A stretch of 64,000 nt of DNA from a bacterium (GCA_965207065.1 OZ242260.1:1482551-1546550); one strand, 5' to 3'; numbered from the stretch's first letter, positions 14,287-39,841 are shown. Translations and numbers: made by a program. The notes: a model not told the origin generated them from the letters alone.

Positions 14287-15111
14287 TCAGCGGAACCTCC
14301 ACGTCCTGCCATCGCTCTTTCGGCGCTTCAGTATCTCGGCCCTGCGCAACTGCAGTTCGGAGACCGCTGCTTTCTTCACTTTCTCGCTCAGTAGAATACC
14401 GACGAAGAGGTGCCTGAACGTTGCTCGCGTCACACCGTTTTCTTTCGCCAAGGCATACCAGATGTATGCCTCTTTCTTGTCGACCGACACCCCATCGCCA
14501 ATGTCATACATCTGGCCGAGCCTGTACTGTGCGGAACCTTGACCGCGCAAAGCCGCCGGACGCAGCCAGCGCAAAGCCTTCTTCTTGTCCTGAGAGACTC
14601 CTTTCCCCTCTAAATACATCATGCCCAAGGCGGTTTGCGCTTGAGGCACATCCTTTTCTGCCGCTTTCCGCATCCACTCAACCGCCTTCTTGAAGTCCCG
14701 TGGTAGAACGCCTTCCTCCCCGTTGTAGTACATGAAAGCGAGTTTTGCGTTCGCCAATCCGTCTCCTTTGTTCGCCGCTGAACGGAACAGCCTTAGTGCC
14801 TCGACCCTGTCCTGTCTTACCCCTTGGCCATTGTAATACATATTGCCTAGGTTGGCCTCCGCGCCAGGCCACCCCTGTGCGGCCGCTAGGCCGTACCATT
14901 TTAACGCCGCTTGCAGATCACGAGCGATTTCTTTGCCCTTGTGATACATTACACCGAGATTGAATTGTGCGACAGGATCGCCCTTCTTGGCGTCACTCAA
15001 TGTCGACTCGAAACGGGAGAGCTTGGCGGAACCAGCTGAGCATCCGCTCAGAAGAGTCGCTAACAACAGGGTCGCCGAAAGCGTACTCCAAAAGGCCTTT
15101 GCGTTTTTCAT
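14287..15111 (-). CDS. Sel1-repeat (TPR-like) lipoprotein
   Basis: Lipobox LLSGCS followed by repeated GxxxA..LGxMYxxGxGVxQD..A..W..KAA Sel1 units. Confidence 0.7.
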   Translation of the reverse strand: MKNAKAFWSTLSATLLLATLLSGCSAGSAKLSRFESTLSDAKKGDPVAQFNLGVMYHKGKEIARDLQAALKWYGLAAAQGWPGAEANLGNMYYNGQGVRQDRVEALRLFRSAANKGDGLANAKLAFMYYNGEEGVLPRDFKKAVEWMRKAAEKDVPQAQTALGMMYLEGKGVSQDKKKALRWLRPAALRGQGSAQYRLGQMYDIGDGVSVDKKEAYIWYALAKENGVTRATFRHLFVGILLSEKVKKAAVSELQLRRAEILKRRKSDGRTWRFR

Positions 15112-15191
15112 CTATACCACCCCGATTGCAAGAACAAACAATATCAAACTACTTCTATCAAATTAGTTGCGTGACATCCAGACACCCTCCG

Positions 15192-15617
15192 TCAATGATA
15201 TATATAGTCTGCTCCACATGGCAGGCAGCTATTACCTAGAGAAGGCAAACCGGTTGCGGACATATATCCGGTCTCTTGATGAGAGCGCTTCCACTTCCGG
15301 TCCCTGATGGATATCGCACACACCGGCCTCAAAAACCGAGCAGTCTTGATGACCTTGACACTGACTAAGCTTTGGACGTGTCGGGTCAATCTGCCTGCTA
15401 TCACTGAGATTATTTTTTTCTCATTCCAGAATTTATTCGCCACTTTGCGCCTATGCGTTGACGCTCTAATGGACCAAAAGACGGCGACCAATTCATCGTC
15501 TCGAACTGCGCTCTCATATTTGAAGAACCCGGCAAGTTCTTCATCGCAAGTTTTGCAACGGGGAAGGTTCGTCGCTTTGTCCTGGGAAATGATGCTCTTT
15601 GTAATTACGTCATTCAA
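15192..15617 (-). CDS. Hypothetical protein
   Basis: 141-aa ORF in low-GC DNA, no recognisable motifs. Confidence 0.25.
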   Translation of the reverse strand: MNDVITKSIISQDKATNLPRCKTCDEELAGFFKYESAVRDDELVAVFWSIRASTHRRKVANKFWNEKKIISVIAGRLTRHVQSLVSVKVIKTARFLRPVCAISIRDRKWKRSHQETGYMSATGLPSLGNSCLPCGADYIYH

Positions 15618-15682
15618 ATTCGATGATCAGACTATTTTGCTCTTCATTCAGGTGAAGTCCTAAACTTGCTGGAAACTATGGA

Positions 15683-17582: not shown

Positions 17583-17733
17583 TCCTCCAGATTCAGACGC
17601 TCAATCTCGCTGTCTCGTGGAGGCCCCGATCGCCGAGCGGGCATACGGCTCGTATTTTCGGGAGAATTCGCGTTTCGCGGAGTTGCGCTCAGGCTTGGCG
17701 TGTGACTATTATGAGTCTAGGAGGCGTAACGCG

Positions 17734-18033
17734 ATGGCTCTAAAGACGATAGCGGCAGTGGTGGCCCTGGCGGCGACTTTCATGAGCGCACCGGCAACCG
17801 CGCACATACTGAAATCCTGCCATGCAAAATACAACCAACAAATAAAGGCAGCTCATTATGACGTGAAATCTGTGGAACGTGTCGTGAAGAAACATTTGAA
17901 AACAGAAGGATGGAGCGAAGACAAAGAAAAAATGAAAAAGATTGTACAATTGCTGCTCCTGGAAAGAAAAAGGATATCCAATCTTGCGAATTTGGTAATC
18001 AAACTCGCGGCGTGCGGCAATAAGAAAAAATAG
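17734..18033 (+). CDS. Small secreted protein
   Basis: AGGAGG 10 nt upstream of the ATG; signal peptide MALKTIAAVVALAATFMSAPATA; Lys-rich mature part. Confidence 0.45.
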   Translation: MALKTIAAVVALAATFMSAPATAHILKSCHAKYNQQIKAAHYDVKSVERVVKKHLKTEGWSEDKEKMKKIVQLLLLERKRISNLANLVIKLAACGNKKK

Positions 18034-18140
18034 AAACCACAGCTTTCGAACCAGTGGATTCCGATGAGTTGGATTGTCTGATCGGGAGATGGCCAAAGTT
18101 GAAAAATCTGAATTCATACCCATATAATAACCGCGCAAGT

Positions 18141-18160
18141 CCCCCCCCCCCCCCCCCCCC
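18141..18160. repeat. Homopolymeric C20 tract
   Basis: 20 consecutive C read directly; intergenic, ~310 bp upstream of the tandem SLP genes. Confidence 0.9.
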
Positions 18161-18468
18161 GAGAATCTCGGTACTAACTTTTTTCAGATCGGCATCGGAA
18201 AAGAACCACATGGAAATTCCGGCGCCGATACCTTTACAGGTTCCATTTCAAACCGTCCAGTCCACAGTTCGGCTTCGAACTTACGTCTCGGAAACCCTCT
18301 TGAGAACGGGCAACCATCAACCCTTGCGCCCAAGTTACGGGCAGAAAAATGCTTAAAGCTGTTGAAATCAGGGTCTGTTCCTGGTCATTCGAGTTCAAGT
18401 ATTCGGGAGCCTATCTTGTTCGTTCTTGCTGATGTGGTTGCCGAATTAACCACAACCAAGAGAATAAA

Positions 18469-19872
18469 ATGACGCGACACAATAAGAAAGTAAACCATAA
18501 AACCTTTTTTTCTTTCATGATGATTTTGATAACAATTGCTTGCGTTTACACATTATCGGGCTGTGGTGGAGGGGGTGGTGGTAGCGTGCCCGGCACTGGC
18601 CCAATGGTAATGCCGGAGCAGCCGGAAATGCCCGAGCAGCCGCCAATGGATACTGTCACGCTCCCGATGGATTTCGTCACCCACGCAAATCCTGGTGCGT
18701 TGGACCCGCTGCCGTCGTTCCGCGCCGCGTCAGATCCCGCGTCCAGCAGGTTCGATTACCAACGCGAAGCTCCCTCTGGTGCTCCCGCGCTCGAGATCAC
18801 CCGCTACACGGCACCCGGAACAATTGCGCCCGCTGATCTGACACCAATGTTAGAACGCGCGGCCAAGCTCTGGACCAGGCGCATCTCGGGTCTCCGAGCG
18901 CCTGGTGGGAAGCATCAATTCTTCCCGCATGCGGAACCAGGCGCCGATGTCCGGATTGAACTGGATTTCCTCGTCGGCTATGAACAACCACGCTGTCCAG
19001 ACACTGCTGCCTGTGGGAACCATTACGGTGATCGTCTGATGCTGCCCTCCGGGCGCGCAAATGACGGTGAGAATCCGCACGTTACCGTCATGCCTGCGTT
19101 TCTGACCCGGGATGTACGCGATGGAAAACTCACGATCGGCGGTTTTCGTACACTGGCGCACGAGTTCGGACATATTTTCGACCACGGCGACCAGTTAAAC
19201 GATGGTAATTACCATTCAGATTGCCGTGGCGGTGCTATCATGTGCGATATCTGGGACTCGAACGTACCTGCGGTCCCGGTAGAACAAGACTTCGACGGTA
19301 TTCGTCACCATTATGATTTGAGGCCCCACCTCGACTACGAACAGTTCGGCATCTGGGCCGAAGTTCCGGGAGAAAATTCTAACCTCGAGCGCTTCGGCGT
19401 GTATGTAAGGCGAATGCTGACGGTCAAGGATGCCATCGACATTTGGGATGTATCGGCCTCAGAATTCATCAGCGATCAGGTCTCGATCGAGACCATCGTC
19501 TTGGGTGTCGCGAGCAGCGGACCGCACCCTGGCATTGGAACAGTAACGTGGAGCGGCGACCTGATCGCGGTCGATACGACTCGTTTCCAACCGATCCTTG
19601 GCACGGCTCGCTTGGGTATGGACCTGACGTCTGTCGAATCACTTGATGTGTCGTTCACCGGCTTGCGCCGGACCGATGACGCTGGCGGGACCCACAATAT
19701 CCCGAATCTGGACTACACGCTTGTGCGAATCGGAACAACCTGGGTCGACGCACGTGGTACCGTAGCCGCCAACTTCTACGCCGTTGACTCGGACCCTGGC
19801 GGCGCTGTCGCTGGCAAGCTTCATGATGACACGCAGAACCTGATGGGGGCCTTTGGGGCGCTTCGCGATTAA
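18469..19872 (+). CDS. Surface lipoprotein (TbpB-like handle/barrel C-terminus) with an N-proximal HExxH zinc-metalloprotease motif
   Basis: Lipobox LSGCGGGGGGS; HEFGHIFDHGD; C-terminus ...GTVAANFYAVDSDPGGAVAGKLHDDTQNLMGAFGALRD. Confidence 0.6.
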   Translation: MTRHNKKVNHKTFFSFMMILITIACVYTLSGCGGGGGGSVPGTGPMVMPEQPEMPEQPPMDTVTLPMDFVTHANPGALDPLPSFRAASDPASSRFDYQREAPSGAPALEITRYTAPGTIAPADLTPMLERAAKLWTRRISGLRAPGGKHQFFPHAEPGADVRIELDFLVGYEQPRCPDTAACGNHYGDRLMLPSGRANDGENPHVTVMPAFLTRDVRDGKLTIGGFRTLAHEFGHIFDHGDQLNDGNYHSDCRGGAIMCDIWDSNVPAVPVEQDFDGIRHHYDLRPHLDYEQFGIWAEVPGENSNLERFGVYVRRMLTVKDAIDIWDVSASEFISDQVSIETIVLGVASSGPHPGIGTVTWSGDLIAVDTTRFQPILGTARLGMDLTSVESLDVSFTGLRRTDDAGGTHNIPNLDYTLVRIGTTWVDARGTVAANFYAVDSDPGGAVAGKLHDDTQNLMGAFGALRD

Positions 19873-20062
19873 TTGGTGGCTGAATTGGGGATGGATACAA
19901 CTCATTTATTGACTTGAGCGCACAGAACGGAGGATTGGTCACCCTATCAGGAAGAGAAAAAGATGGAATAGAAGCAGGGCTTGTCGAACTGATCAGTAGT
20001 GGCGTCTCCGATGAATCGCCCAACATAAATTTCCGCTCACCTGAATTGAGGAGGAATCGCCA

Positions 20063-21391
20063 ATGTCCGATTTGAAACACATTCTTGCTTTTACAGTTGC
20101 CGCATCCTTTGCACTACTCCTGGCCGGATGCGGCGGTGGCGACAACAACAAGGCACAGCCTCCTGCCCAAATGCCGCCGACAACCGGTACCGTAACCGAA
20201 TTCGCCGGTTTGAAACCCACAAACGCCGACTACGCGGCGACTGCCGCTAGCAGAGCCGCTGATGCCAGACCCCGCTCGGGCAGTGTCACACAGTCATCGA
20301 ACGTCAACAACGGCATCACGGTGGATCGCGTATCGGTGACGGCTCAGCATGGATCCGGCCGGAACAACTACTCGATTCACAACGGGTCATCGTGGTCCAT
20401 CAGCACAAGCGACGGCAATCCCGTAACGATTTACGCTAACGCACCATTCGATGGCCAGGAACTGTACAAGCGCATCAATGGGGGCACACTCTACGTCGAT
20501 ATTTATTCCGATATCGAGGCGCCCAAAACTACGACCATCACCACGACGATGCCCGGTCAGCCCCAGGATGTCGGGTCCGGAGACCGAATTGTAGGTCTTT
20601 CCTGCCTTGGGCCGAGATGTACGTCGGACTCTCAAGAAGGGACACTGAATGGCGTAAGCGGTACGTTCAGCTGCCCTTCCGGTTGCAGCATTCAATTCGG
20701 AGGACTGTCACTCTCTAGTGGCAGCAACATTTCCTTTCAGGGAGCCACATTCAATGGCCTGGTAGTCGGAGAGGACGAGTTTAGGGTCACTTCCGCGACA
20801 GGCATAACGTTCACGCCGGCACAATCGACACAGCCGTCTGAGCAGACGACTTCCGACACAGACTATCTGGCGGGTGGTGTCTGGCTGTTCGTACCCGACG
20901 ACGCGGCGAGCGCCGACGATGTAGTGATCGGAGCCTTCGGGGATGGCAACGACCCGTTCGACCAGAACAACCTGATGGCGGTGCAAGGCTCGGCGGACTA
21001 TGTCGGTTTGGCGACGGGCGTCTACGCGGACAAATCAGAAAATGAAGTCGGATATTGGGGCGGCAACGTGACCCTGACGGCCGACTTCGGGGGGCGAAGC
21101 GACCTGGGATCGATTAGCGGTAGGATCACTGGCATCGAAGCAGACGGCGAAAGCCAATCAGGCTCCGTGAGCCTGGATCGGGCCAATATCGGGTCTTCGA
21201 ACAGCGGTTTCTTTGAGGGGCAGTTGAGCGGCGCCGTCAACGGGGGCGGTTTGACCGGTCGATGGGGCGGACAGTTCTTCGGAAACAGCGAGACGGACGG
21301 CAAGCCCGGGTCCATCGGCGGGACGCTGGGCGGACGATCTCAAGACCGCAGCGTGAGCTTCGTGGGAGTCTTCGGCGCCTACAAGCAGTGA
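20063..21391 (+). CDS. Surface lipoprotein, TbpB/fHbp-like (SLP family)
   Basis: Lipobox LLLAGCGGGDNN; C-terminus ...GGQFFGNSETDGKPGSIGGTLGGRSQDRSVSFVGVFGAYKQ. Confidence 0.6.
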   Translation: MSDLKHILAFTVAASFALLLAGCGGGDNNKAQPPAQMPPTTGTVTEFAGLKPTNADYAATAASRAADARPRSGSVTQSSNVNNGITVDRVSVTAQHGSGRNNYSIHNGSSWSISTSDGNPVTIYANAPFDGQELYKRINGGTLYVDIYSDIEAPKTTTITTTMPGQPQDVGSGDRIVGLSCLGPRCTSDSQEGTLNGVSGTFSCPSGCSIQFGGLSLSSGSNISFQGATFNGLVVGEDEFRVTSATGITFTPAQSTQPSEQTTSDTDYLAGGVWLFVPDDAASADDVVIGAFGDGNDPFDQNNLMAVQGSADYVGLATGVYADKSENEVGYWGGNVTLTADFGGRSDLGSISGRITGIEADGESQSGSVSLDRANIGSSNSGFFEGQLSGAVNGGGLTGRWGGQFFGNSETDGKPGSIGGTLGGRSQDRSVSFVGVFGAYKQ

Positions 21392-21585
21392 TGGACTAGC
21401 ACGTTCGCCTTCTAGCGCACCCGGCAACGATCGTCACCGATTTCTGCGTTTGTGGAACGACTCACGACGCTGCACCGTGAGCGCAAGCGAATGGCGAGTT
21501 TGCTGATCAAGGACGTCACCCTCGCCAAGGGGCGAAGAGTTGCTCTTGGGAGTGCGTCTGCGTTCCGGCGCCGGAGCGGCCCGCG

Positions 21586-21999
21586 CATGAGGTTTATAAA
21601 ACCCCCGGCGAAGTCGTTGCCGAGATCGACAGATTGCTCGAAGCCCACACTGACCCCGAGATCGCGACAATCCTCAATGAGCGAGATTACCGGAGCGGAT
21701 ACGGCCACGCATTCCACAAGGGGATAGTCTGGAAGATCAGCACCAACCATGCCCTGAGGTCGCGCTATGAGCGCCTGCGGTTACGCGGGCTGTTGCCCAT
21801 CGAAGAGATCGCTGAGCTGCTCATCGTCTCGACATGGACAATCAAGAAATGGCGCGCAAGCGCGAGTTTTTTGCACGGACACGCCTATAACGATAAACCC
21901 TGCTGCTTGTACGAGCTTCCGGAGTATCCGCCGATCATACGAGTGGGGGCAGTATCTCGCGACAGCTTCTGCGAACGTCGGTGGTGTAACCATGTGTAA
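21586..21999 (+). pseudogene. Serine-recombinase-like fragment (recombinase-domain block plus HTH)
   Basis: ...EIATILNERDYRSGYGHAFHKGIVWKISTNHALRSRYE resembles the IA.LN..G..T..G..W....V..IL.NpaY.G block of large serine recombinases; no catalytic domain present. Confidence 0.3.
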
Positions 22000-22181
22000 C
22001 ATTCGGTAATAAGGTGATGGAGGTTGGCCAAGCGAAGAGTTGCGGGATGTTTCTATTCTTGCGCTGCCGCTGATATTAGTGGTCTTACCCGGCTGAAACA
22101 CCTAGATCAGGAAAGCCGACTCACTCCTTGCTATTCTGAAAATCGAATGATGGGATGTCCGGTTTCGAAAGTTTCTCTGGC

Positions 22182-22300
22182 AATTCGGGCGCGACTTCGG
22201 AGATATTCCGGCTGATTTGCTCGATTTCTTCCTCGCGGCCGGCCTTCTCCATGTCGCGGATGATTGCCTGAGCGGTGAACATTGCCGAGCGCAACAGGTG
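22182..22300 (-). repeat. Copy B (truncated) of the RHH-element repeat
   Basis: 119 bp sharing the common end AATTCGGGCGCGACTTCGGAGATATTCCGGCTGATTTGCTCGAT...; diverges after ...GCAACAGGTG. Confidence 0.6.
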
Positions 22301-22989
22301 GGTGCGACAGGCTGCTAGGTTAAATTATTCAGATAATCGGAATAATGCCGTCGCCCGCTCGTAGCCATGGACGTCACGCTTACCGATATTGTCCTTATTC
22401 TCGCGCCACAACTTCACCCCTTTCAAGAGGGACATTGAGGCGCGTGCGCAGCACCTCTTGCGCCTGCAGTTCATTCTGTATTGTTCAGTTTCCCGCCGCT
22501 TCGTTACGGCAGTCGCATCATCAGCCGCTTCGTTCGCCAAGTGGAGATGCGGGTCGAAGCAGCGTTCTCTATGAGGCGTACTGGATCGCCCTAGAAGTCA
22601 CCCTAGTTGTAGGAATTAGTGAAACTCGTGGCCGTGATGCGTGCACGCTTAGACAATGACCGCAACGCTTCGATGTCCCTGGTGCCAAGCGGGCGATCAA
22701 TCCGTTTGTATTGGTATTCGCTCACGACTCGCCCTACCGGTATTAGGCCATTGCGCTATTCACCAAGATTCGGATTCTGCAAGAAAAATGATCCCCGTGT
22801 TTATGCTTGATGGCAACCGTGTGCGGCGCATACCCGGCGAAGACGGCAGGAATTCCTTTACCTTGCCTGCAAATTTACTTCCACCTTCTCCAATCGAGTT
22901 GGCCGGGACAAGTTTATTTGCCCCGGTTTTGTGGCCGAAACTCTTGTGGCCAGATTTACCCACCTGTTATTATCTCAATATAGATAATT

Positions 22990-29954: not shown

Positions 29955-30395
29955 GTGAGGGTTTATTACCGCTACCATCCGCTGGCGGGCTGCCGCGTAA
30001 CTTGCCTTGGGCGTCGAAAGGCGTATGGGCAGAGGATGTTGATCATCCGGCATCCGGACGGAACACAGATGCATGTCCCGGAGTGGATGACCAGGCCGGA
30101 TGCGGCCCTGCTCGAGGTTCGCGACGTCCCGAGAATCTCCCTGCGGGCGCTTCGTGAATTGCGGAATCTCATCGATGCGTCTCTTCTTGTACCGGACCAG
30201 GCCCGGAGGGGAGGAGACGATGAACACCAGACGCCGAAATTCGAAACAGGGGGAACTGTTTCCCCCGGAACAACCGCCGCACCTGATAACGGACGAAAGA
30301 CGCGAGGCGCTGATACCGCTCCTGTCGATGACCATCGCAGTGGCCATGGAAGCTCCGGGACCGGAGAGCCCGACGAGTCGGGGGGCCGGCCATGA
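29955..30395 (+). CDS. Hypothetical small protein upstream of the serine recombinase
   Basis: ORF ending in ATGA overlap with the recombinase start; N-terminal ~80 aa look protein-like, the remainder is low complexity. Confidence 0.3.
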   Translation: MRVYYRYHPLAGCRVTCLGRRKAYGQRMLIIRHPDGTQMHVPEWMTRPDAALLEVRDVPRISLRALRELRNLIDASLLVPDQARRGGDDEHQTPKFETGGTVSPGTTAAPDNGRKTRGADTAPVDDHRSGHGSSGTGEPDESGGRP

Positions 30396-32467
30396 GGGGT
30401 GAGCAAACAAGGATCACCGCCGGCCATCTGGCGCGCGCGGCCTGTGTCTACGTTCGACAGTCCTCACTCGGCCAGGTTCGCAACAACCTGGAAAGCCAGC
30501 GCCTTCAGTACGGATTGCAGGCCCGCGCGAAGGAGCTGGGCTGGCGGGAAGTGATGACGATCGACGAGGACCTCGGCCGTTCGGGAGGTGGCGGCGTCGA
30601 GAGGCCCGGCTTCCAGAAACTCCTGAGCGCGGTCTGCGAGAACAGGGTCGGCATCGTGTTGTCCGTCGACGCCTCCCGCCTGTCCCGAAACGGCCGTGAG
30701 TGGCATACTCTTCTCGAGTTCTGCGCCGTGGTCGGCTGCCTCCTGGGAGACGGGCGCGGCATCTACGACCCCGGTCTGCCCGATGATCGCATGCTGCTCG
30801 GCATGAAGGGGAGCTTCAACGAAATGGAAAGCTCGCTCCTGCGCCAGCGCTCCCACGACGCCCGTCGCCAGAAGGCGGAGCGGGGCGAGTTGTTCCTGAA
30901 CCTGCCGGCCGGATACGTGAAGGTCGGGCGCGACGCCATCGCGCTCGACCCCGACCAGCGGGTGCGCGACGCGGTACGGCACGTATTCCGCAAGTTCACC
31001 GAGCTGCGGAGCATTCGCCAGGTGTTCCTGTGGTTCCGGCAGGAAGGAGTCGAGCTTCCGTATCGCTCTCTCGACACCGGCGTTCATGGATGGCGGGTCG
31101 CCTGGAAGCTGCCGGTGTACAATACCGTCCACCAGATCCTGACCAACCCGATCTACGCGGGCGCCTACGCCTACGGTCGCAGGAGGCGGCGGAGGGTGAT
31201 CGAGGAGGGGCGCCAACGCATCGTGAACGAGGTCAGGCGCAACCCGGAGGAGTGGGCGATATTGATTCGCGACAACCACGAGGGCTATATCTCCTGGGAG
31301 GAATATGAACGCAATCGCGGCCTGATCGCGGCCAATGAGCCGAAAATCAAGGGAGCGGTGCGCGAGGGCGGCGCGTTGCTGACCGGCTTGTTGCGATGCG
31401 GTCATTGCACCCACAAACTCCAGGTCGTCTATTCGGGGAACAGCGGGGTGGGCCGCTACCTCTGCCAGGGCAGGCGGTCGCACACGGATGGTACAACCTG
31501 CATCTCCTTTGGTGCGGGCGACGTCGACGAGGCCGTCGCCGCCGCCGTGTTGCGAGCGGTAGAGCCGCTGGGAGTGGAAGCCGCGCTCGGTGCGCTCAAA
31601 GAGCGCGGAAAGGAAGCAGCCGAACGCGCCCGTCTGGCGGAGCTGGCGCTCGAGGAAGCCCGGTTCCAGGCGGAGCAGGCGCGGGCGCGGTTCGAGGCGG
31701 TCGATCCCCGCAACCGCAACGTCATCGGCAATCTCTCGCGGGCATGGGAGGAGCGCCTCGAGGTCGTGCGGGAGCGGGAGGCCCGGTTGGAGGCGGCGCG
31801 CTCACAACTCCAGCTTCAGGAGCCGACACCCTGCGAGCGAGCCGCGTATCTCGCCCTCGGCGCCGATCTGGAGCAGGCCTGGAACCATGAGAACGTGACG
31901 ACCGCGATGCGCAAGCACATTCTGCGCGCGGTGCTCGTTGAGATCATCGTGACCGTCTCGGCCGAGCGGATCGATCTCGTCCTGCATTGGGAGGGCGGCG
32001 ATCATACGGGACTCTCCGTACGCAGGAGAAAGAGCGGACTAACGCGTATCGCGGCGGACGCCGACACCGGGACCATGATCCGGGAACTTGCCCGCCTCAT
32101 GCCGGACCGGGCCATCACCGCGTTCCTGAACCGGGCCGGGAAGCGGACCGGCAAGGGCAATGCCTGGACCGAGGCGCGCGTACGCGCCTGGCGTTCCCAT
32201 CACGGCATAGCGGTCTATCGTGATGGGGAGCGACAAGAGCGCAACGAACTGACACAGACCGAAGCCGCGGCGAGGCTGAAAGTCAGCGCCAGAACAATGA
32301 ACCGTCTGATCAAGCGCGGCGTTGTTCCGGCCCGCCAGGCCTGCAAGGGCGCGCCCTGGGTGATATCCGCAGATGCTCTCGAACTGCCGGATGTTGCCCG
32401 GGCGCTGAAAAAGGGAGTATACCCGCCGGCACCGGATGATGAACAGAAAACCTTTTGTTTTCAATAA
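30392..32467 (+). CDS. Large serine recombinase (intact, 691 aa)
   Basis: Resolvase domain (VYVRQSS...), recombinase domain, zinc ribbon CGHCTHKL...YLCQG, long Ala/Arg/Glu coiled-coil, C-terminal HTH. Confidence 0.75.
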   Translation: MRGEQTRITAGHLARAACVYVRQSSLGQVRNNLESQRLQYGLQARAKELGWREVMTIDEDLGRSGGGGVERPGFQKLLSAVCENRVGIVLSVDASRLSRNGREWHTLLEFCAVVGCLLGDGRGIYDPGLPDDRMLLGMKGSFNEMESSLLRQRSHDARRQKAERGELFLNLPAGYVKVGRDAIALDPDQRVRDAVRHVFRKFTELRSIRQVFLWFRQEGVELPYRSLDTGVHGWRVAWKLPVYNTVHQILTNPIYAGAYAYGRRRRRRVIEEGRQRIVNEVRRNPEEWAILIRDNHEGYISWEEYERNRGLIAANEPKIKGAVREGGALLTGLLRCGHCTHKLQVVYSGNSGVGRYLCQGRRSHTDGTTCISFGAGDVDEAVAAAVLRAVEPLGVEAALGALKERGKEAAERARLAELALEEARFQAEQARARFEAVDPRNRNVIGNLSRAWEERLEVVREREARLEAARSQLQLQEPTPCERAAYLALGADLEQAWNHENVTTAMRKHILRAVLVEIIVTVSAERIDLVLHWEGGDHTGLSVRRRKSGLTRIAADADTGTMIRELARLMPDRAITAFLNRAGKRTGKGNAWTEARVRAWRSHHGIAVYRDGERQERNELTQTEAAARLKVSARTMNRLIKRGVVPARQACKGAPWVISADALELPDVARALKKGVYPPAPDDEQKTFCFQ

Positions 32468-32481: not shown

Positions 32482-32751
32482 TTAGTATGACTGGCGTTTC
32501 ACGTAAGGCTTCACGTAGACCGGTGGCATGAGCTTCACCTCGTGACCGAGCCTGCCGATCTCGCGGCCCCAGTAGTGCGCGCTCGCGCACGCCTCCATCG
32601 CAATCAGGCAGCGCGGCTGCGAAGCCAGAAAACCCGGTACATTCCCCCGGGTCAACTTCTTGCGAAACGCGACCGAACCGTCTATGCGCGCGCCATGGAG
32701 TTGAAAACCATGTTTCACCAAGTCGATACCGATGATGTGAACCTGTTCCAT
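32482..32751 (-). mobile_element. IS110-family transposase N-terminal ~90 aa (separated from its C-terminal part by the 29932..32481 cassette)
   Basis: MEQVHIIGIDLVKHGFQLHGARIDGSVAFRKKLTRGNVPGFLASQPRCLIAMEACASAHYWGREIGRLGHEVKLMPPVYVKPYVKRQ; ends at the same VKRQ motif with which ORF 29143..29931 begins. Confidence 0.65.
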
Positions 32752-32870
32752 GGGGTCCTCCTTCCGGGCGGTATGAAGACGCCACCTCGCCACAGTGTGA
32801 TACCTGCCAGGAGGGGTCGTCCACCCCATCGTCCTGAGTTCAGCGGCCTCCCTGCCGGTTTCTTTTTCGT

Positions 32871-33420
32871 TCACCCCATCGATGAACCTCACGTCGGTGA
32901 TCACGTCGGCCAGATGACGCAAGCCGCTTAGCCGCCCCCATCGCTTCTCGGCGCTCATGGCGAGTTGATGCACCAGGCTCAGCGCCGTCTTCTCGCTCAG
33001 GCAGTTCCTCGTCTTCGCCGTTCGCAGCCGGATCGTGGCGAAGGTCGACTCGATGGGGTTCGTCGTCCGGATACTCCGCCAGTGCGCCGCCGGGAAGTCG
33101 TAGAAGGCGAACAACTCCTCGCGGTCCCGCGCCAGACACTCGGCGGCCTTGGGGTACTTCGCCTCCCAGGTGGCGAGAAAGCGTTCAAACGCCTTCTCCG
33201 CGCGCTCGCGGGCGTCGGCCCCCCACATCTCATACAGCATCGGCCTCGCTTCGCTCTGAACGCTTTTGGGCAGCTTGTCCAGAACGTTCGCCGTCTTGTG
33301 AACCCAGCAGCGCTGCGCCCGGGTCTCGGGATACACCTCGGCCAGCGCCGACCAGAACCCCAGCCCCCCGTCGCCCACCGCCAGCTTCGCCGCCTTCACC
33401 CCCCGCTCCCGCAGGCTCAA
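32871..33420 (-). mobile_element. IS256-family transposase C-terminal half
   Basis: ...ESKESWKAVLLSLRERGVKAAKLAVGDGGLGFWSALAEVYPETRAQRCWVHKTANVLDKLPK...FYDFPAAHWRSIRTTNPIESTFATIRLRT...; read through in frame into the IS110 5' region. Confidence 0.7.
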
Positions 33421-33426
33421 CAGAAC

Positions 33427-33446
33427 CGCCTTCCAGCTCTCCTTCG
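33427..33446. repeat. 20-bp perfect palindrome TTATGTAGAG|CTCTACATAA flanked by CCGG, resembling two abutted RIT termini
   Basis: Read directly; each half differs from the RIT terminus TTATGTGGAG by one base; sits between the IS256 C-half junction and the RIT left end. Confidence 0.6.
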
Positions 33447-33641
33447 ATTCCCGGTTATGTAGAGCTCTACATAACCGGGATTATGTGGAGTTCATGGTTA
33501 TGTGGAGTTCATCCTGGAGTTCGTTGTTTTTGTGTGGTTTGCGGGTAGCGAACTCCACATAACTTTTGCATCGTCTCTCCTGTCCGCGTCGTTTCGGAGA
33601 GCGGCGGCAAGACAGGCCTGCCGCCGCTCTCCGTTCCCTCA

Positions 33642-34652
33642 TCAGCACCTCGAGCGTTGTCCGTCTCCATTGCCTGCGAGCATGGCGAGCAGCTTGTCGG
33701 GCGCCCGGAAGCGACCCGGCCGGAGGTCCGGCAATCGGGCGCCGTCGAGCATCTCGAGTTTTTCTGTGGGGTCGGCGTGCAGATAGACCTCGGTGCTCTG
33801 GATGGTCGCATGTCCGAGCCAGAGGGAGACCTTGCGCATGTCCCCGGTTGCCTGAAGCGTATGCATCGCGCAACTGTGTCTCAGGGTGTGGGGCGTCACG
33901 TGTTTGCCGGCGAGGCCCGGCTCCGCCCTGGCCGCGTTCTTCAGATGTTTTGCGAGTATGACGTTGAACCCCCAGCGGCTCAGCCTTCGCCCGAGCCGGT
34001 TGTGGAACAGTTCCGGGTCGCCTTCGGGGTCGCGCAGGCGGAGCCATGCCTCGATGCCCGAGCGCGTCTCTTTCCAGAGCGGAAGTCTCCGCTCGCGGCG
34101 TCCCTTGCCCATGATCCGGACGCCGGCCGGCGCCCGGCGGTCGTAGTCGTCGAGCTTCAGGGCGGTCAGTTCACTGACGCGCAGTCCGCAGGCGTACGTC
34201 AGATGGAGCATGGCCCGGTCACGTATTCCGTCCCTTCGCCCCGGGTCGGGCGCGTCGAGCAGGGCCTTGATCTCGGCGCGGGTGAGCCAGGCCACCAAGG
34301 CCTTGTCTGCCTTCTTCTTCGGGATCAGGGCGATCCGGACGGCTTGCTCCAGGGTGCCGGGCTCGCGCCATTCGACGAAGCGGAAGAACGCCTTGACGGC
34401 CGCGAGGCGCGCGTTGCGCGTACTGACGGCCGCGCCCTTGCGCTCGACGTGCTCCAGGAAGGCGAGCACCATATCCGCGTCGATCTGCTCGAGAGCAAGC
34501 TGCGAAGGTCTCACCCCGAGCCTGCGGGCGACGAAGCGCAGCAGCAGCGACAGCGCTCGCGAGTAGGCGTCCACCGTGTTCGGGCCGGCGCCCTTCTCAA
34601 AGGGGAGATGCTCGGACACGAAGGCGCTTGCATGCCGGGCCAGCGGGGTCAT
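33642..34652 (-). CDS. ritC: Tyrosine recombinase RitC-like
   Basis: Start MTPLARH overlapping the ritB stop (ATGA); ...HTLRHSCAMHTLQATGDMRKVSLWLGHATIQSTEVYLH. Confidence 0.6.
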   Translation of the reverse strand: MTPLARHASAFVSEHLPFEKGAGPNTVDAYSRALSLLLRFVARRLGVRPSQLALEQIDADMVLAFLEHVERKGAAVSTRNARLAAVKAFFRFVEWREPGTLEQAVRIALIPKKKADKALVAWLTRAEIKALLDAPDPGRRDGIRDRAMLHLTYACGLRVSELTALKLDDYDRRAPAGVRIMGKGRRERRLPLWKETRSGIEAWLRLRDPEGDPELFHNRLGRRLSRWGFNVILAKHLKNAARAEPGLAGKHVTPHTLRHSCAMHTLQATGDMRKVSLWLGHATIQSTEVYLHADPTEKLEMLDGARLPDLRPGRFRAPDKLLAMLAGNGDGQRSRC

Positions 34653-35566
34653 GACGCGTCCTCCCCATGGAAGGCTTCCGTCCGCCGGGCGACTTCTCCC
34701 AGCAGCGCCTCGGTGCTCTCGTGATACCACCAGGTATGGGCGACGGAGGCATGGCCGAGCCAGGCGCTGAGAGCGACCATGTGCCGGGCGACCGCCCGCC
34801 GCCCGGAGCCGCAGGCTTCGAGCGAGCGCACCGCGAAGGTGTGGCGCAAGTCGTGGATACGCGGGTTGCGCCCGTCTTCCCGCGCACCTGCGAGACCTGT
34901 GCGCGAGCGCATCCGGCGGAACACGGCGCGGGCCGCGGAAGGACCCATGCGGCCGCGGCCGTCGGCCAGGAAGAGGGCTTCGGTATCCGCCGGCACGCGA
35001 ACCCGCGCCCGGAGGTGACGCGCGAGTTGCGTTTCGACCGTGGGATGGAAGGGCAGCAGGCGCCGTCCTCCACGCTTCGCCGTCCTGACCATCAGTCCCT
35101 CCGGGGTGACGTCATCCACGTCGATCGCCAGCGCCTCGCAGCCCCGCAGTCCGGTGGCGGCGATCAGCCCGAACAGGATCCGGTACTGGCCCGGGACCGG
35201 GCACCTGATCGTGGCGCACTCATCGGCCACGGCCAGGAGCGCGGCGATCTCGGAAGCAGAGTAGATGTAGGGCTTGGGCCGCACCCGGTGCGCGCGGGGC
35301 AGGACGTCCGCCGGAGGCGCCTCGTGCCGGGGGTCCTCCACGGCCATCGCCAGGGCGAAGCGGCGCACGAGCAACACCAGTCTGCGCCGCTGCAGGGCCG
35401 ATGAGGAACGGCGCGCCCATTCGAGGACGCTCTGCGTGTTGACGTGGCTATCGCCGCGGGCCTGCGCGAAGGCGGCGTAGTTCGCGAGACGCCGGGCGTC
35501 CTTGCGGAAGCTGCGCCCGGCGGCGCGGATGGAGGCGACGTATCGCTCGACGGCATCGACGATCAT
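34649..35566 (-). CDS. ritB: Tyrosine recombinase RitB-like
   Basis: Start MIVDAVERY; ATG overlaps the ritA stop (ATGA); ...HDLRHTFAVRSLE...LGHASVAHTWWY; the long upstream extension of the 640-aa ORF is antisense junk. Confidence 0.6.
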   Translation of the reverse strand: MIVDAVERYVASIRAAGRSFRKDARRLANYAAFAQARGDSHVNTQSVLEWARRSSSALQRRRLVLLVRRFALAMAVEDPRHEAPPADVLPRAHRVRPKPYIYSASEIAALLAVADECATIRCPVPGQYRILFGLIAATGLRGCEALAIDVDDVTPEGLMVRTAKRGGRRLLPFHPTVETQLARHLRARVRVPADTEALFLADGRGRMGPSAARAVFRRMRSRTGLAGAREDGRNPRIHDLRHTFAVRSLEACGSGRRAVARHMVALSAWLGHASVAHTWWYHESTEALLGEVARRTEAFHGEDAS

Positions 35567-36804
35567 GACGCGCCTCCCGGCCAGGGCTGCGCAATCTCGC
35601 GAAGCCGTATCGGGTCCGTTCTGGCGTAGATGGAAGTGGTCAGTATACTCCTGTGCCGCAGGAGCGTGGCGATGGTCTCCAGCGTGGCGCCGTCTTCGAG
35701 CAACCGGCAGGCCACCGAATGGCGAAGCAGGTTTACGCCTCCCGATGGAGTATCCTCCAATCCCGCGCGGCGCAGGGCGCTCGCGACGATTGAGCCGACG
35801 ACGGACGAGGAGGAGAAGGGACGCCAGGGCGGACGCATACAGAGGAACACGTGCGGGTCGTCCAACGGCGGCCGCCCGTCCTTCAGCCAGACGAGGATGG
35901 CGTCGCCGACCTCCTGGGGCAGGGGCAGCGTGGCCTCGCGACGCCCCTTGCCCGTGACGCGCAGACGTCCGCGCCGCCAGTCGATCTGCTCGAACGTCAG
36001 GCCGCCGGCGTCGCCCGCCCTGAGCCCCAGCCGGGCGACCAGGAGCAGGAAGGCGAGGTCCCGCCGTCCGATCGCCGTGCCCGTGTCGCAGGAGGCGAGG
36101 AGCCGCTCCACCTCCGCCGCCTTCAGGCCGCGCGGAACGTTGTCGCGCCGCGGCATGACGACGCACGGCACGGCTCTTGCCAATATCGCCGGACACCGGT
36201 CGAGCGCGGCGTTGTACCCGAGCCAGGAGCGTAGCGCCGTCGCTCTCGACTTCCGGGAGGGCAACTTCCCGGACAGACCCGCGTGGGAGAACGCCGCGCG
36301 AAGGTTCGCGGCGTCGTAGCGCGCCGGGTCCGTGCCGACCAGCGGCAGCAGTTGGCTCAGCGCGCACTCGTAGCGCCGCAGGCTCGAGGCGGCCAGCCCC
36401 TTGTGCCGCCCAAGCCAGTCGAGCCAGGCCGCGACCTCCGGCGCCCGTTCCGGCGTTCGCACCGCCGGAGCATCGGTCACCCCGCTCCCTGAGAGGAACC
36501 GCACGAACCTTCGCACCCCGTAGAGGTACCTCTTGCCGGGCGGACGGCGGCGCGCCCCGGGACAGCGGCACTCATGAGCGCCGAAGCGAGCCACATCGCT
36601 CTCGACGGCGTCATCCGGACATCTGCCCGTCAAGTGAAGCCAATGGCAAAAATGCCGGGCTGCCTGAACGTATCCCTCCACCGTCGAGCAAGTGTGATCG
36701 AGTTGGAACAGATGATGCCGGTAGGCGTCGACGTGCCGGGCGTGCGGCCCCATGTCCATCAACCAGCGTCGTGTGACAGGATCGAATCGTGTCGTATCGG
36801 GCAT
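35563..36804 (-). CDS. ritA: Tyrosine recombinase RitA-like
   Basis: 413 aa; C-terminal catalytic region ...LRHSVACRLLEDGATLETIATLLRHRSILTTSIYAR (HxxR...Y). Confidence 0.65.
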   Translation of the reverse strand: MPDTTRFDPVTRRWLMDMGPHARHVDAYRHHLFQLDHTCSTVEGYVQAARHFCHWLHLTGRCPDDAVESDVARFGAHECRCPGARRRPPGKRYLYGVRRFVRFLSGSGVTDAPAVRTPERAPEVAAWLDWLGRHKGLAASSLRRYECALSQLLPLVGTDPARYDAANLRAAFSHAGLSGKLPSRKSRATALRSWLGYNAALDRCPAILARAVPCVVMPRRDNVPRGLKAAEVERLLASCDTGTAIGRRDLAFLLLVARLGLRAGDAGGLTFEQIDWRRGRLRVTGKGRREATLPLPQEVGDAILVWLKDGRPPLDDPHVFLCMRPPWRPFSSSSVVGSIVASALRRAGLEDTPSGGVNLLRHSVACRLLEDGATLETIATLLRHRSILTTSIYARTDPIRLREIAQPWPGGAS

Positions 36805-36952
36805 CGTAACCTCCTGTTGTGAATAGGCGCCCGAAGCGCGGGCGCGGACAGGAGAGACGATGCAAAAGTTATGTGGAGTTCGCTACCCGCAAACCACACA
36901 AAAACTACGAACTCCAGGATGAACTCCACATAACCATGAACTCCACATAATC

Positions 36953-37582
36953 CCGGAAGCCCGGCTCCAGGGCCAGGAAGCGCTTGCGGCCCCGCGCGTC
37001 GCAGCCCACAACCACCAGAAGACAGCGCCGCTCCCCGCTGCGCACGTTCACGTAGATGCCGTCCGCCCACAGATACGCGAACTCCTCGTCATCCCACGCC
37101 CGCTCGCGCCACTGCGCGTACTCGCGCTCCCAGCCCTCCTTGAGACGCGAGACCGTCGACGGGGACAAGCCCCCCACCGACTCGCCGAACAGCGCCCGGA
37201 GCGCCTCATCGAAGTCGTTCGTCGATACCCCCTTCAGGTACAGCCACGGTATCACCGCCTCCACGCGCCGCGTCTTGCGCAGATACGGCGGCAACAACTC
37301 CGAGCGGAAACGCCGCCCCGAACCCGACCTGTCCCGCGTCCGCGGGACACGGACACGCACCCGACCCACTCCCGTCAATACCTCCCGCGACGGCAGATAG
37401 CCGTTGCGCACCACCGCGCGACGACCCTGCGCGTCGTGTTCGCCCGCATGTTCTGCCAGATAGGCTTCCAACTCCGCTTCCACCGCCTGGCGGATGATTC
37501 GCTGCGCGCCCGCGCGTACCAGTTCGCTCAACTCGTCGCGATAGGCTGGATTCCGGAAGGGAATCGTCGTATCTTCTCTCAT
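36953..37582 (-). mobile_element. IS256-family transposase N-terminal half
   Basis: MREDTTIPFRNPAYRDELSELVRAGAQRIIRQAVEAELEAYLAEH...RNGYLPSREVLTGVGRVRVRVPRTRDR...LKGVSTNDFDEALRALFG...YLWADGIYVNVR...LVVVGCDARGRKRFLALEPGFR. Confidence 0.7.
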
Positions 37583-37772: not shown

Positions 37773-38741
37773 CTATCTATCAGGCCATATTTCAGCATCC
37801 TCGCCCGGTTCTTGATTTGGCCTGAAATCCAGCAGGTAGGTTTCGGGGTCGATTTTCGAGAACGTAACATCTGTCCGGCCATACTCGATGAGGTGATGCC
37901 TCGTCACATACACGCCAGAACCAACACGTAGACGCGCCCTCAAGTAAGCACCGAGCAAACTGTTGTCCTGTGTAGTGTGCAATCCCTTTCCGGCATCTTG
38001 AGCGCGAACACATATGAAGCTGTCGCCATCATCCGTAAGAACCGTGAATTGCTCAAACCTGTCAGGGAAGAATCCACTACGCCCCACGCTTGCGGGAATG
38101 TTGATGTAGGCTTGGTTCGGGTTTCTCCCAGACCTTTGCCCCCAGTTAATGCCCGATCTGGTAGGCGTCTCACCTTCTCTCGAAAGAAGAGTGAGGGTAA
38201 CGCTTTCAAGTGGGCTTCCCGTCTCAAAACCCTTCCGGCTTTGCAGCAAGGTGATCTGAGTGTCGATATGGGGCTGAATGCAGTCCGATGCGTTCCTGAG
38301 AATGAGGTTGTGGAAGTCGTTTGCATCGCATGAATCGGCTGGGGACATGACCTCTATTTGCGCCCTTCCGAATCCCGTCATAGTATAGTTGGCGGAGCCG
38401 CAGAAAGCCTTTATCGGCTCTCCTTTGGCATTCAACCACACATACGATTTAGCATGAACTGGATTGCCTCGAACCACGTATCGGCAAATGAAGTCCGTAT
38501 CCCAGGACGGATGATCCATCATTTTGCAGAATGCGGAATGCTGGGCTTCCTCTATCCCGTGTTGTATCGTCATGCCGATTATGAGTTCTATCGAGATGTT
38601 GAGGTCTAGTTCCTTCAGGTGCTCCATATGCCTGTCGGCCATATTCGCGGTAGCGAATCCGCTGACAATACGCAGGCGCCCTCCGTTCACGTCATACGCG
38701 GGCGATAGCAGGACTTCACGGAAGAGGTCTTCGTGGATCAT
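37773..38741 (-). CDS. Type II restriction endonuclease, PLD (HKD) family with B3-like C-terminal domain (NgoFVII/BfiI-like)
   Basis: HAKSYVWLNAKGEPIKAFCGSANYT = HxK(x4)N(x6)GSxN PLD motif; start overlaps the methylase stop (ATGA). Confidence 0.6.
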   Translation of the reverse strand: MIHEDLFREVLLSPAYDVNGGRLRIVSGFATANMADRHMEHLKELDLNISIELIIGMTIQHGIEEAQHSAFCKMMDHPSWDTDFICRYVVRGNPVHAKSYVWLNAKGEPIKAFCGSANYTMTGFGRAQIEVMSPADSCDANDFHNLILRNASDCIQPHIDTQITLLQSRKGFETGSPLESVTLTLLSREGETPTRSGINWGQRSGRNPNQAYINIPASVGRSGFFPDRFEQFTVLTDDGDSFICVRAQDAGKGLHTTQDNSLLGAYLRARLRVGSGVYVTRHHLIEYGRTDVTFSKIDPETYLLDFRPNQEPGEDAEIWPDR

Positions 38742-39841
38742 ATTGTGAGTTCATAAGCAGGGACGTCATGCTTGACGAGTGAATTCAGGACGGCGCGATA
38801 AACGACCTCCGCGCCCTTCGGTGGAACGGCCATGCCGATTTGCTTTCGCACGGATTCTTTCCCGCCCTCAAAGACAAAGCTGTCGGGAAATGTTTGGAGT
38901 CTCGCCCTTTCTCTATTCGTCAAGGCGCGATTTTCTTCCCAATGATATAGATGCGTTCCACCGCCACCGGAACCAGTAACCGTATAGCTTGGCGCATCCG
39001 GCTTGAGTCTTCTGTAAATTTGGCTGATGGTTGCGCCGCTCTTGAGGTTCAATTTTAGATGCTTGGGCAAATCAGCCGTGAAGGCGTTCTCTCCCGGCTT
39101 GATATGTTTCAACCTCTCGACAACATTTCCAGACTGGTTTGTGCGCTCGTTGTTGGTCGCATCATCCGGTATGTCGCTCAATGCTTCTTTAGCCGTATTG
39201 AAATTATCCATGTGTGTGGGCGCAGGATGCTCGAAAGAATCAATGCCCAGGTCTTTGCGAAAACCGACCACGAACAATCTGTGGCGCGCTTGAGGCACTC
39301 CGTATTCCTCTAGGCGATAGGTGTGCGGGAAAATCGCATATCCGGCTTTTCGCAGGGAAGACAGGATGATGGCAAAGTCTTTATTATCACCGCTCGACTT
39401 GATGCCGCTCACATTCTCGGCTACGAAAAATGCAGGTTTCTTCGCCTTGAGCGCACGCACTCCCCAGATGTAAAGGCCACCATGCTGGCCAGATATACCC
39501 CGTCGCTCTCCTATTACGCTGAAATCATTGCATGGGAACCCGAAGGCCAGCCCGTCAATATCCGCCAGTTCCTTGAAGTCCAAGTCCTTCACATCCCCGC
39601 ACATGACACCGCCTTCCGGCAACGGGATATTATTTTCGAGCGTCTTGCAAGCATCCGCGTCCCTGTCGTTTACCCACACGTGAACGAAACCATGCCCGCC
39701 CACCTTCGCGTTGTGCGCGCCCAGCGTCATGCCTCCTGCACCAGCAAATAATTCACCTATCCGATAGGTCTTGTGATCCGGAGATGGAGCCATAGCGAGC
39801 GCAAGCTGATTGTCGAAGCTCATCCGGTAAGCTCCCGCCAA
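38738..39841 (-). CDS. DNA cytosine-5 methyltransferase
   Basis: Motif I FAGAGG, motif IV GFPCNDFS, ENV, PQARHRLF; 367 aa. Confidence 0.75.
   Translation of the reverse strand: MAGAYRMSFDNQLALAMAPSPDHKTYRIGELFAGAGGMTLGAHNAKVGGHGFVHVWVNDRDADACKTLENNIPLPEGGVMCGDVKDLDFKELADIDGLAFGFPCNDFSVIGERRGISGQHGGLYIWGVRALKAKKPAFFVAENVSGIKSSGDNKDFAIILSSLRKAGYAIFPHTYRLEEYGVPQARHRLFVVGFRKDLGIDSFEHPAPTHMDNFNTAKEALSDIPDDATNNERTNQSGNVVERLKHIKPGENAFTADLPKHLKLNLKSGATISQIYRRLKPDAPSYTVTGSGGGGTHLYHWEENRALTNRERARLQTFPDSFVFEGGKESVRKQIGMAVPPKGAEVVYRAVLNSLVKHDVPAYELTI

Follow-up and report, generated by a model that had tools for sequence, protein, structure and literature searches.

What does a short palindrome do at the end of a transposon that carries three recombinase genes, and what does it tell us about how such transposons move? 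The question is raised by a 64,000-nt stretch of bacterial DNA (GCA_965207065.1, OZ242260.1:1482551-1546550; the window, in which all positions given here are counted), where an intact, complete recombinase-in-trio (RIT) transposon sits inside a transposase gene of the IS256 family, and a 20-bp palindrome separates one end of the transposon from its target. An initial annotation recognized the complete RIT and its target gene, and regarded the palindrome as what looks like a circle junction that was preserved here, or the footprint of an excision. That interpretation did not hold, because the same structure is found in many RITs and the target is restored when it is removed together with the RIT and one 6-mer; its broader suggestion, that the palindrome bears on RIT movement, is supported. 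The anatomy of the site, its empty form, conservation across the family, the rules that link three 6-mers, and natural variants with flipped bodies or swapped spacers are best accounted for by conservative tyrosine recombination across a 6-bp overlap, by way of a circle in which two core sites stand back to back and each is available for use. We think this model somewhat likelier to be right than wrong. RIT elements are widespread, occurring in many phyla, on plasmids and, here, on phage contigs; to our knowledge, nobody since 2009 has shown how RITs move or why they need three recombinases.

An intact RIT element in an IS256-family transposase gene

The insertion spans 33451-36952 or, equivalently, 33455-36956, and is 3502 bp long; its left end had been placed about 28 bp too far to the left (33423/33427-36956). 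The transposase gene's C-terminal part lies to its left (32938-33454, minus strand; PF00872 profile positions 206-376, NCBIfam IS256 166-336), with the target 6-mer as its last 6 nt, and the N-terminal part lies to its right (36953-37582, minus strand; PF00872 22-201, NCBIfam IS256 2-163). Joining the two flanks yields one uninterrupted NCBIfam IS256 match (residues 39-374, profile 2-335), whose junction reads ...LALEPGFR/ESKESW, as had been noted for the restored frame. Over its entire length, the reconstituted transposase shares 99% identity with P0001, an uninterrupted protein of 422 aa encoded by contig L149 (L numbers designate our comparison loci and contigs). At the site, L149 reads ...GGGCTTC CGGGAA TCGAAGG..., with a single 6-mer and no palindrome. 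The empty target therefore contains one TCCCGG (plus strand) and lacks the palindrome, the 6-mer of the window is the target's own sequence, and the target is restored by removing the RIT, the palindrome and one 6-mer. Likewise, in L021 and L024 the open reading frame (ORF) is restored by removing the palindrome, the inner spacer, the RIT and one 6-mer. Because the empty-site boundary falls outside the palindrome, the outer palindrome arm is the actual terminus of the element. The center of the palindrome was considered as the crossover point and rejected for this element, since the boundary lies 10 bp outside it. ORF restoration was also tried in L002, L003, L004, L015, L017 and L018, where the spanning ORFs in GC-rich DNA looked spurious and were not used.

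On the plus strand, the occupied site reads CTCCTTCGAT-TCCCGG-TTATGTAGAG/CTCTACATAA-CCGGGA-TTATGTGGAG ... CTCCACATAA-TCCCGG-AAGCCCGGCT, the parts of which we call tL-X-a-a'-Y-b1 ... b1'-X-tR. The outer spacer X (TCCCGG, 33449-33454, plus strand), present once in the empty site of L149, has a second copy at 36951-36956 (plus strand) in the right junction s3 (b1'-X-target arm); a flanking duplication had been reported as CCGG, and the repeat is real but 6 bp rather than 4 bp long. We propose that X at 33449-33454 is the crossover or overlap region of the left junction s1 (target arm-X-a). It is followed by the palindrome (33455-33474), which consists of two back-to-back 10-bp arm motifs, a = TTATGTAGAG and a' = CTCTACATAA, and by the inner spacer Y (CCGGGA, 33475-33480, plus strand), the reverse complement of X. 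Because of this third, inverted 6-mer copy, X-a-a'-Y is a perfect palindromic 32-mer without a loop (33449-33480). The 20-mer TTATGTAGAG/CTCTACATAA has one occurrence in the window with up to 3 mismatches allowed, versus 0 expected. The target arms show no convincing similarity to those of the element (tR and a share 0-3 of 10 positions, tL and b' 2-7 of 10), so targets seem to be defined mainly by the 6-mer.

The element is bounded by two symmetric inverted repeats (IRs) of 114 nt, at 33475-33588 on the ritC side and 36843-36956 on the ritA side (plus-strand coordinates), which are complementary at 113 of 114 positions; the lengths of 127 and 110 bp, and the 17-bp repeats numbering three on the left and two on the right, that had been given before were not borne out. 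In each IR a 17-mer occurs twice in direct order, once exactly and once with 2 mismatches, together with one inverted copy of the 10-mer TTATGTGGAG. The motif TTATGTGGAG occurs in each as two direct copies 17 bp apart at the tip and an inverted copy ca. 70 bp further inward, namely b1 (33481-33490), b2 (33498-33507) and b3 (33553-33562) on the ritC side, and b1' (36941-36950), b2' (36924-36933) and b3' (36869-36878) on the ritA side. Between the IRs, three minus-strand genes are arranged as ritC<ritB<ritA: ritC (33642-34652) encodes a 336-aa XerD-like tyrosine recombinase (PF00589, 1.4e-31, plus SAM_1), ritB (34649-35566) a 305-aa tyrosine recombinase (PF00589, 4.9e-14), and ritA (35563-36804) a 413-aa tyrosine recombinase with an extended N-terminal region (PF00589, 1.3e-24, residues 227-397). 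The ATGA overlaps noted earlier were confirmed at both gene junctions. As judged by sequence pattern, the catalytic residues (R...HxxR...Y) are present in RitA, RitB and RitC, with the motifs GLRVSE, HTLRH and LGHx9Y in RitC, and GLRAGD, NLLRH and a C-terminal SIY in RitA. The best solved relative of both RitC and RitA is E. coli XerD (1a0p), in alignments that cover residues 16-302 of RitC and only 127-405 of RitA. Against XerC and XerD models RitC scores best, with 185 bits for XerD versus a cutoff of 330, followed by RitA with 101 and RitB with 54.

By its trio of recombinase genes, their apparent order and their overlaps, its size, its IRs and the evidence for mobility, the element is a new member of the RIT family. 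It has three adjacent same-strand tyrosine recombinase genes with ATGA overlaps, within the 4-8 bp that define RITs, and its 3502 bp between terminal inverted repeats agree with the ca. 3.5 kb of RITs (relatives, 3359-3525 bp). The protein lengths of 413, 305 and 336 aa fit the RitA, RitB and RitC subfamilies, a fit of size rather than a direct comparison with the reference Famint/RitA-C profiles, and the relatives found via RitA have B- and C-like genes in the identical order. Mobility as a unit is indicated by the empty site and by one lineage found at four different sites. In its ritA-ritB-ritC order, ATGA overlaps, length and terminal inverted repeats the element resembles the RITs described previously (Van Houdt 2009; PMC3414803, PMC2864759), from which it differs in nothing of kind. 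Exact-protein look-ups of RitA and RitC gave no match, and megablast of the element against plasmids found just a 54-bp match.

The palindrome is a family-wide feature

We compared the site with 28 loci from a RitA-based scan of one genome per species and with at least 120 loci from a metagenome scan for a degenerate form of the palindrome, in which 122 palindromes were assessed; all counts given here are among the matches listed. The layout of a 6-mer, two back-to-back 10-mers, a second 6-mer and the IR terminus, at one end only, is found in about 90 RITs with RitA identities of 27-90%, which come from phage contigs and finished plasmids as well as from genomes and metagenomes. The four nearest relatives (L001, RitA 90%; L002-L004, 64-66%) have a 20-bp palindrome 6 nt from one IR terminus, with an inner gap in L002 that reads 7 nt (TGCGGC+A). 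RITs at only 35-40% RitA identity have the palindrome as well; their genomes or metagenome-assembled genomes (MAGs) are alpha- and gammaproteobacterial or belong to Acidobacteriota, Pirellulales and Polyangiaceae. The genome loci that share the architecture are L001-L004, L015, L017, L018 and L020-L024; the finished plasmids are pSymA, Paracoccus pAK2 and R. hidalgonense pPR19E03; and one RIT lineage on phage contigs has the same layout. Of the metagenome cases listed, 59 are one-sided, with two arm repeats after the palindrome, and 57 of these have a 6-nt spacer between it and the terminus. The two sides are represented about equally, with the palindrome on the ritA side in ca. 19 cases and on the ritC side in ca. 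17.

The two 10-mers of the palindrome are terminus-like, as had been noted, but they are not copies of the element's own terminus: the arms have A where the terminus has G at position 7, a variant common to the window and L001. In other lineages, a terminus such as TCATGTTGAG or GTATGTCCCG stands beside TTATGTGGAG arms. Because the arms are not copies of the adjacent terminus, relatives share the palindrome and its removal with the RIT and one 6-mer restores the target, we conclude that the palindrome is passed on with the mobile unit, of which it is a part. The nearest relative, L001, comes from a Nitrospinaceae MAG (CAYTSP010000041.1) and is 93-94% identical to the window at the DNA level. 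It has a deletion of ca. 417 bp at about 3999-4008, which takes in ritA's 3' end together with the 5' part of ritB, and this copy is therefore probably defective.

The 6-bp spacers follow common rules

The outer 6-mer is directly repeated at the far end of the element, at 6 of 6 positions, in the window and in L001, L004, L015, L017, L018, L154, L155 and L157/L168. Among 17 rows of metagenome contigs the match is 6/6 in 8 (two of them the two strands of the fold-back L119) and 5/6 in 3 more. Where the inner spacer differs from the outer one (L004, L015, L017, L156 and L166), the far end follows the outer 6-mer; the direct repeat therefore brackets the palindrome and the RIT as one unit. Within the unit, the inner spacer matches the outer one's reverse complement at all six positions in 30 of 59 cases and at five in 14 more, with ca. 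1.5 of 6 expected by chance. TCGGCC is present in all of L088, L107, L116 and L147, four unrelated sites with near-identical RIT ends, which indicates that spacers are lineage-specific and that their identity is selected. The initial annotation had proposed checking other RIT insertions for CCGG flanks and would have been refuted by different ones; the 6-mers themselves do differ, but they obey the same rule, a mixed outcome. On these comparisons, insertion appears to occur where the 6-mer of a target matches that of the element's spacer, in keeping with the overlap-identity rule of tyrosine recombinases.

The window and L001, which occupy the same IS256 site, co-vary at all three 6-mers (TCCCGG three times in the window versus TCCCTG/TCCCTA/TCCCTG in L001), and the base that changed is a synonymous position of an Arg codon in the transposase gene. 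The IRs are identical at 112-113 of 114 positions within an element versus 105-107 of 114 between the window and L001. Co-variation of the 6-mers and high IR identity within each element thus point to continuing exchange between the ends.

Flipped bodies and exchanged spacers in natural variants

In five independent cases, the target and the side of the palindrome are the same and the body of the element is flipped. The window, with the palindrome at the ritC end, and L001, with the palindrome at the ritA end, are one such pair; the others are L110 versus L127, L020 versus L021/L024 (one gene family, motif GFWSQGDGA), pSymA versus pAK2 (IS66 tnpB at TDMR/K), and the phage contigs L160/L170 versus L161. 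This last case tells us the most. The L160 and L161 phages are 91.6% identical overall and identical over ca. 130 nt beside the site. L160 reads tL-TCCTCG-PAL-CATCGA (PAL, palindrome) followed by one IR type, and L161 reads tL-TCGATG-PAL-CGAGGA followed by the other. The body of one is inverted relative to the other, and each spacer stands in the other's place as its reverse complement. This swap is exactly what re-entry of a circle through its other core site predicts; inversion in place, be it between sites s2 and s3 of the model below or by homologous recombination of the IRs, does not predict it. The lineage occurs on phage-like IMG/VR contigs (L157-L174; e.g. L160, L161, L165, L167, L170 and L172) at one conserved site beside a gene start, and L165 and L172 are copies in opposite orientation on a single 158-kb contig.

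Solo palindromes, fold-backs and other rearranged forms

Palindromes are also found apart from RITs. That the motif might occur at RIT-free loci had been named as a test of the initial interpretation, and it does occur in metagenomes: about 40% of the palindrome-pattern matches listed have no adjacent RIT end, a few of them being RIT ends missed by the search pattern. Such solo palindromes have perfectly symmetric 6-mers in 23 of 54 matches listed, and eight have inverted homologous flanks of more than 50 nt, e.g. head-to-head 3' parts of IS21 istB or istA, or 5' parts of Y1-transposase genes. Removing 20, 26 or 32 bp from solos gave no consistent ORF restoration. One palindrome, TTATGTAGAGCTCCACATAA, lies at a single conserved and apparently RIT-free locus of human-gut contigs (L051, L058, L086, L102, L108, L134, L138, L059 and L174) with just 3-6 nt of flank symmetry, which may make it an old solo or else a binding site of an unrelated kind.

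Other RITs have a palindrome at both ends, with direct repeats of 32 bp or 3502 bp (L009, L014 and L167), or none, as in the finished plasmid L153, where the flanks are unmatched. Fold-backs with exactly inverted flanks and a palindrome at both ends were found in L075 and L119. Plasmid pHG1 (NC_005241.1, L175; 128215-137807, locus positions 13215-22808) has a 3119-bp, 99.9% identical inverted duplication of ritA-ritB-ritC' flanking a second, complete RIT of a different end type, a fold-back in a finished plasmid. The idea that L075 and L119 are assembly artifacts was dropped, as pHG1 has the same kind of structure.

A model for RIT movement and its alternatives

We propose that the RIT entered the IS256 gene by conservative exchange across TCCCGG, a 6-bp overlap common to target and element. 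The mobile unit would be asymmetric, [a a' Y b1...IR, ritC ritB ritA, IR...b1'], and its 10-mers (TTATGTRGAG) would be recombinase-binding arms, any two of which, inverted around a 6-bp spacer, could form a dif-like core site (ACATAA-N6-TTATGT). The 20-bp palindrome would then not be a site itself but two half-sites back to back. Its outer arm a would complete the left junction s1 (tL-X-a), its inner arm a' would complete a full internal core site s2 (a'-Y-b1, 33465-33490), and the right junction s3 would be b1'-X-tR. Exchange between s1 and s3 is predicted to release a circle whose ends are joined as b1'-X-a-a'-Y-b1, a 52-bp dyad containing two equivalent core sites, either of which could recombine with a target bearing a matching 6-mer. 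The side of the palindrome on a given target would be fixed and the orientation of the body free; because an asymmetric 6-mer fixes the side, the palindrome would always be found on the same side of that target. The circle, the cleavage positions and the pairing of Rit proteins with arms are what we infer from these arrangements.

After integration, the complete site that is retained could recombine with the far junction or with other copies, and inversions, fold-back duplications, solo palindromes and palindrome-less RITs are the expected secondary products. Were s2 to recombine with s1 of another copy, the product would be a solo flanked by inverted sequences; s3 of a sister molecule as partner would give fold-backs, whether bearing palindromes or not, and secondary sites that have the same 6-mer would give a solo together with a palindrome-less RIT. 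On paper, solos, palindrome-less RITs, double-palindrome RITs and fold-backs can all be derived from recombination of s2 with another site or from insertion next to a solo. It is possible, though we hold this broader claim only tentatively, that RITs use a recombination locus new for any transposon, two back-to-back dif-like core sites of which one is intact after integration, so that an element can enter in either orientation at any matching 6-mer and stays recombinogenic (flips, spacer swaps, fold-backs, solos and palindrome-less copies), and that they prefer the transposase genes of other insertion sequences (IS256, IS21, IS66 and Y1/HUH), which would make them parasites of mobile elements.

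Several observations weigh against the circle model. RIT ends on both sides of the palindrome, as expected of a circle junction or of tandem copies, were found in 0 of 122 metagenome palindromes among the matches listed, and the corresponding pattern gave 0 matches in viral contigs. Likewise, a mobilome study saw exonuclease-protected RIT DNA and no reads across circular junctions, and suggested hairpins (PMC5737581). In L064 and L082 the 6-mer at the far end follows the inner spacer, as its reverse complement, instead of the outer one, and L087, L094 and L173 have a poor 6-mer match. Moreover, the TCGATG of L161 is not the phage's own sequence, and exchange between mismatched 6-mers must therefore be allowed. 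Homologous recombination between the 114-bp IRs could also flip bodies. The RIT-free palindromes, at about 40% of the matches listed, and the palindrome-less RIT L153 are explained only partly, through hypothetical extra reactions, and the model does not account for the role of three recombinases. Finally, the search pattern for the palindrome and the restriction to the matches listed bias the metagenome sample from which the counts come.

Could the palindrome instead be a one-off scar, left outside the element by an earlier RIT visit as a trapped circle junction or excision footprint? Two terminus-like 10-mers do lie head to head beside the insertion site, and solo palindromes do occur elsewhere. 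Yet in about 90 RITs with diverse sequences and targets the structure keeps a distance of exactly 6 nt to one terminus, the variant that sets its arms apart from the element's own terminus recurs in L001, palindrome and RIT lie together between the two copies of the 6-bp direct repeat, and the palindrome is present at all four sites of one lineage; this reading is largely refuted and very improbable. A two-step history, in which a short unit (6-mer, palindrome, 6-mer) entered the IS256 gene as a landing pad and the RIT (b1...b1') then integrated beside its perfect arms, would suit the symmetric 6-mers common among metagenome solos (23 of 54 perfect, matches listed), the RITs with palindromes on both sides (L009, L014 and L167), which fit insertion beside a pre-existing palindrome, and the palindrome-less L153. 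We consider it unlikely, given that the far-end 6-mer repeats the outer and not the inner 6-mer where the two can be separated (L004, L015, L017, L156 and L166), that no route is known by which a 26-bp unit would move alone, that no IS256 copy with only a palindrome was seen, and that removing 20, 26 or 32 bp from solos leaves their ORFs unrestored.

The palindrome might also act in folded form, as a hairpin, cruciform or single strand processed by Xer-like enzymes (cf. telomere resolution and the folded single-stranded attP of CTX), with a hairpin-ended or single-stranded intermediate. It is free of a loop and 32 bp long here, and the 52-bp dyad of the joined form, extruded as a cruciform, would have the geometry of a Holliday junction between core sites. 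Exonuclease-protected RIT DNA without junction reads, for which hairpins have been proposed (PMC5737581), and the fold-backs L075, L119 and pHG1 (3119-bp inverted duplication) are compatible with such a route. However, a palindrome at one end only would leave a linear form with one end open; ordinary double-strand exchange suffices to account for the direct repeats of 6 bp, the spacers that are constant within a lineage and the pair with swapped spacers; and fold-backs can be produced by exchange between two copies. We regard this route as having a small chance of being correct. Less promising still is an accessory or regulatory site (e.g. for a Rit protein dimer, in expression or synapsis) that travels along without strand exchange, with crossovers at the IR termini and flips by homologous recombination of the IRs. 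The long, near-identical IRs of each element would suffice for RecA-mediated inversion, and the palindrome arms are strongly conserved across lineages. But the empty-site boundary lies outside the palindrome, the equal frequency of ritA and ritC sides implies no fixed relation to a promoter, the constant 6-nt spacing and 6-mer symmetry fit core sites, and the L160/L161 spacer swap is not produced by IR recombination; we doubt this explanation strongly. The circle with two usable core sites thus remains our preferred model.

Relation to known systems and literature

The accessible RIT literature describes the ends loosely, as "34 bp terminal inverted repeats" (PMC10214605) or as 47/51-bp imperfect palindromic repeats (PMC5737581), and states the mechanism as unknown. 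Neither the double core site at one end, nor the rules for the 6-bp spacers, nor the flip and swap variants appear in the accessible RIT literature (PMC3414803, PMC2864759), and no later mechanistic study of RIT movement was found within it, Ricker 2013 being outside it. RITs in the genes of other mobile elements have been reported, including IS66 tnpA, a Tn6049-like transposase and radC (PMC2864759, PMC3414803).

The sites resemble those of XerC/XerD-dif and of integrative mobile elements exploiting Xer (IMEX, e.g. CTX phage), where inverted arms, ...CATAA/TTATG..., surround a 6-bp central region. E. coli dif is GGTGCGCATAA-TGTATA-TTATGTTAAAT, with the inner arms TTATGT/CATAA. A dif-type core is present in the window at 33465-33490 (CTCTACATAA-CCGGGA-TTATGTGGAG), a resemblance of the site only. 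Exchange at dif depends on identity of the central region, and XerD is the best solved relative of RitA and RitC; the Rit proteins are Xer-like and may work as Xer recombinases do, on dif-like sites. Nevertheless, all three fall far below the model cutoffs and are not XerC or XerD. In contrast to dif systems, RITs have their own enzymes, many targets set mainly by the 6-mer, two back-to-back core sites plus subterminal arm repeats, and no FtsK or dif context.

Tn554 and GInt/SE elements, like RITs, have several cooperating tyrosine recombinases, are site-selective and have a circular intermediate that is shown or proposed; in SE elements the 6-bp junction sequence matters (PMC10214605). Tn554, however, has two recombinases plus TnpC, GInt/SE elements have a fourth essential gene plus cargo, and long terminal inverted repeats and a one-sided palindrome are absent from both. 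The window element has no fourth gene (ginD/srap) or cargo, nor room for them, because all the space from one IR to the other is occupied by its three recombinase genes; the further ORFs there are just antisense or out-of-frame ones that overlap the rit genes in GC-rich sequence. Elements of the Tn916 type share the 6-bp staggered exchange, and a tolerance of non-identical 6-mers like theirs would explain L161, L064 and L082. But Tn916 inserts without overlap identity and without matching 6-mers on both sides, whereas in RITs matching 6-mers are the rule.

Together with its relatives, the window element turns "imperfect inverted repeats" into an exact site map of arms, spacers, double core site, boundaries, empty site, and before-and-after variants. 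This map suffices to design mini-elements, spacer mutants and junction PCRs, and annotation pipelines could use it to delimit RITs to the base and to recognize solo palindromes and rearrangements.

Recurrent targets and neighboring genes

RIT ends or palindromes recur at conserved motifs of transposition genes: DELGY of IstB (L009, L031, L063 and L120, with an istA case in L098), LMxNHY of Y1/HUH transposases (L040, L046, L067, L068, L093, L113, L123, L125, L142 and L145) and TDMRK of IS66 TnpB (L154-L156), with an IS66 transposase in L175. This recurrence could be either a real preference or survivorship bias.

Between the ritC stop codon and the IR of the window element lies a perfect 15-bp stem with a 9-nt loop (CGGAGAGCGGCGGCA...TGCCGCCGCTCTCCG, 33595-33633), with no T-run following it on the coding strand. 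The ORF that contains the IS256 transposase's C-terminal part continues into an N-terminal fragment of an IS110-family transposase (32482-32917; NCBIfam IS110 profile 1-89, residues 239-320). Homology to the IS256 of L001 ends at 32918, and the IS256 3' end is therefore itself disrupted, making the locus a nest of mobile elements. Directly to the left of this cluster is a gene for a 691-aa large serine recombinase (30392-32467, plus strand) with Resolvase, Recombinase, Zn_ribbon_recom and HTH_17 domains. To the right of the IS256 gene lies a type II restriction-modification pair (37773-39841, minus strand), in which an NgoFVII-type endonuclease (PLD plus B3-like) is encoded beside a C-5 cytosine methyltransferase.

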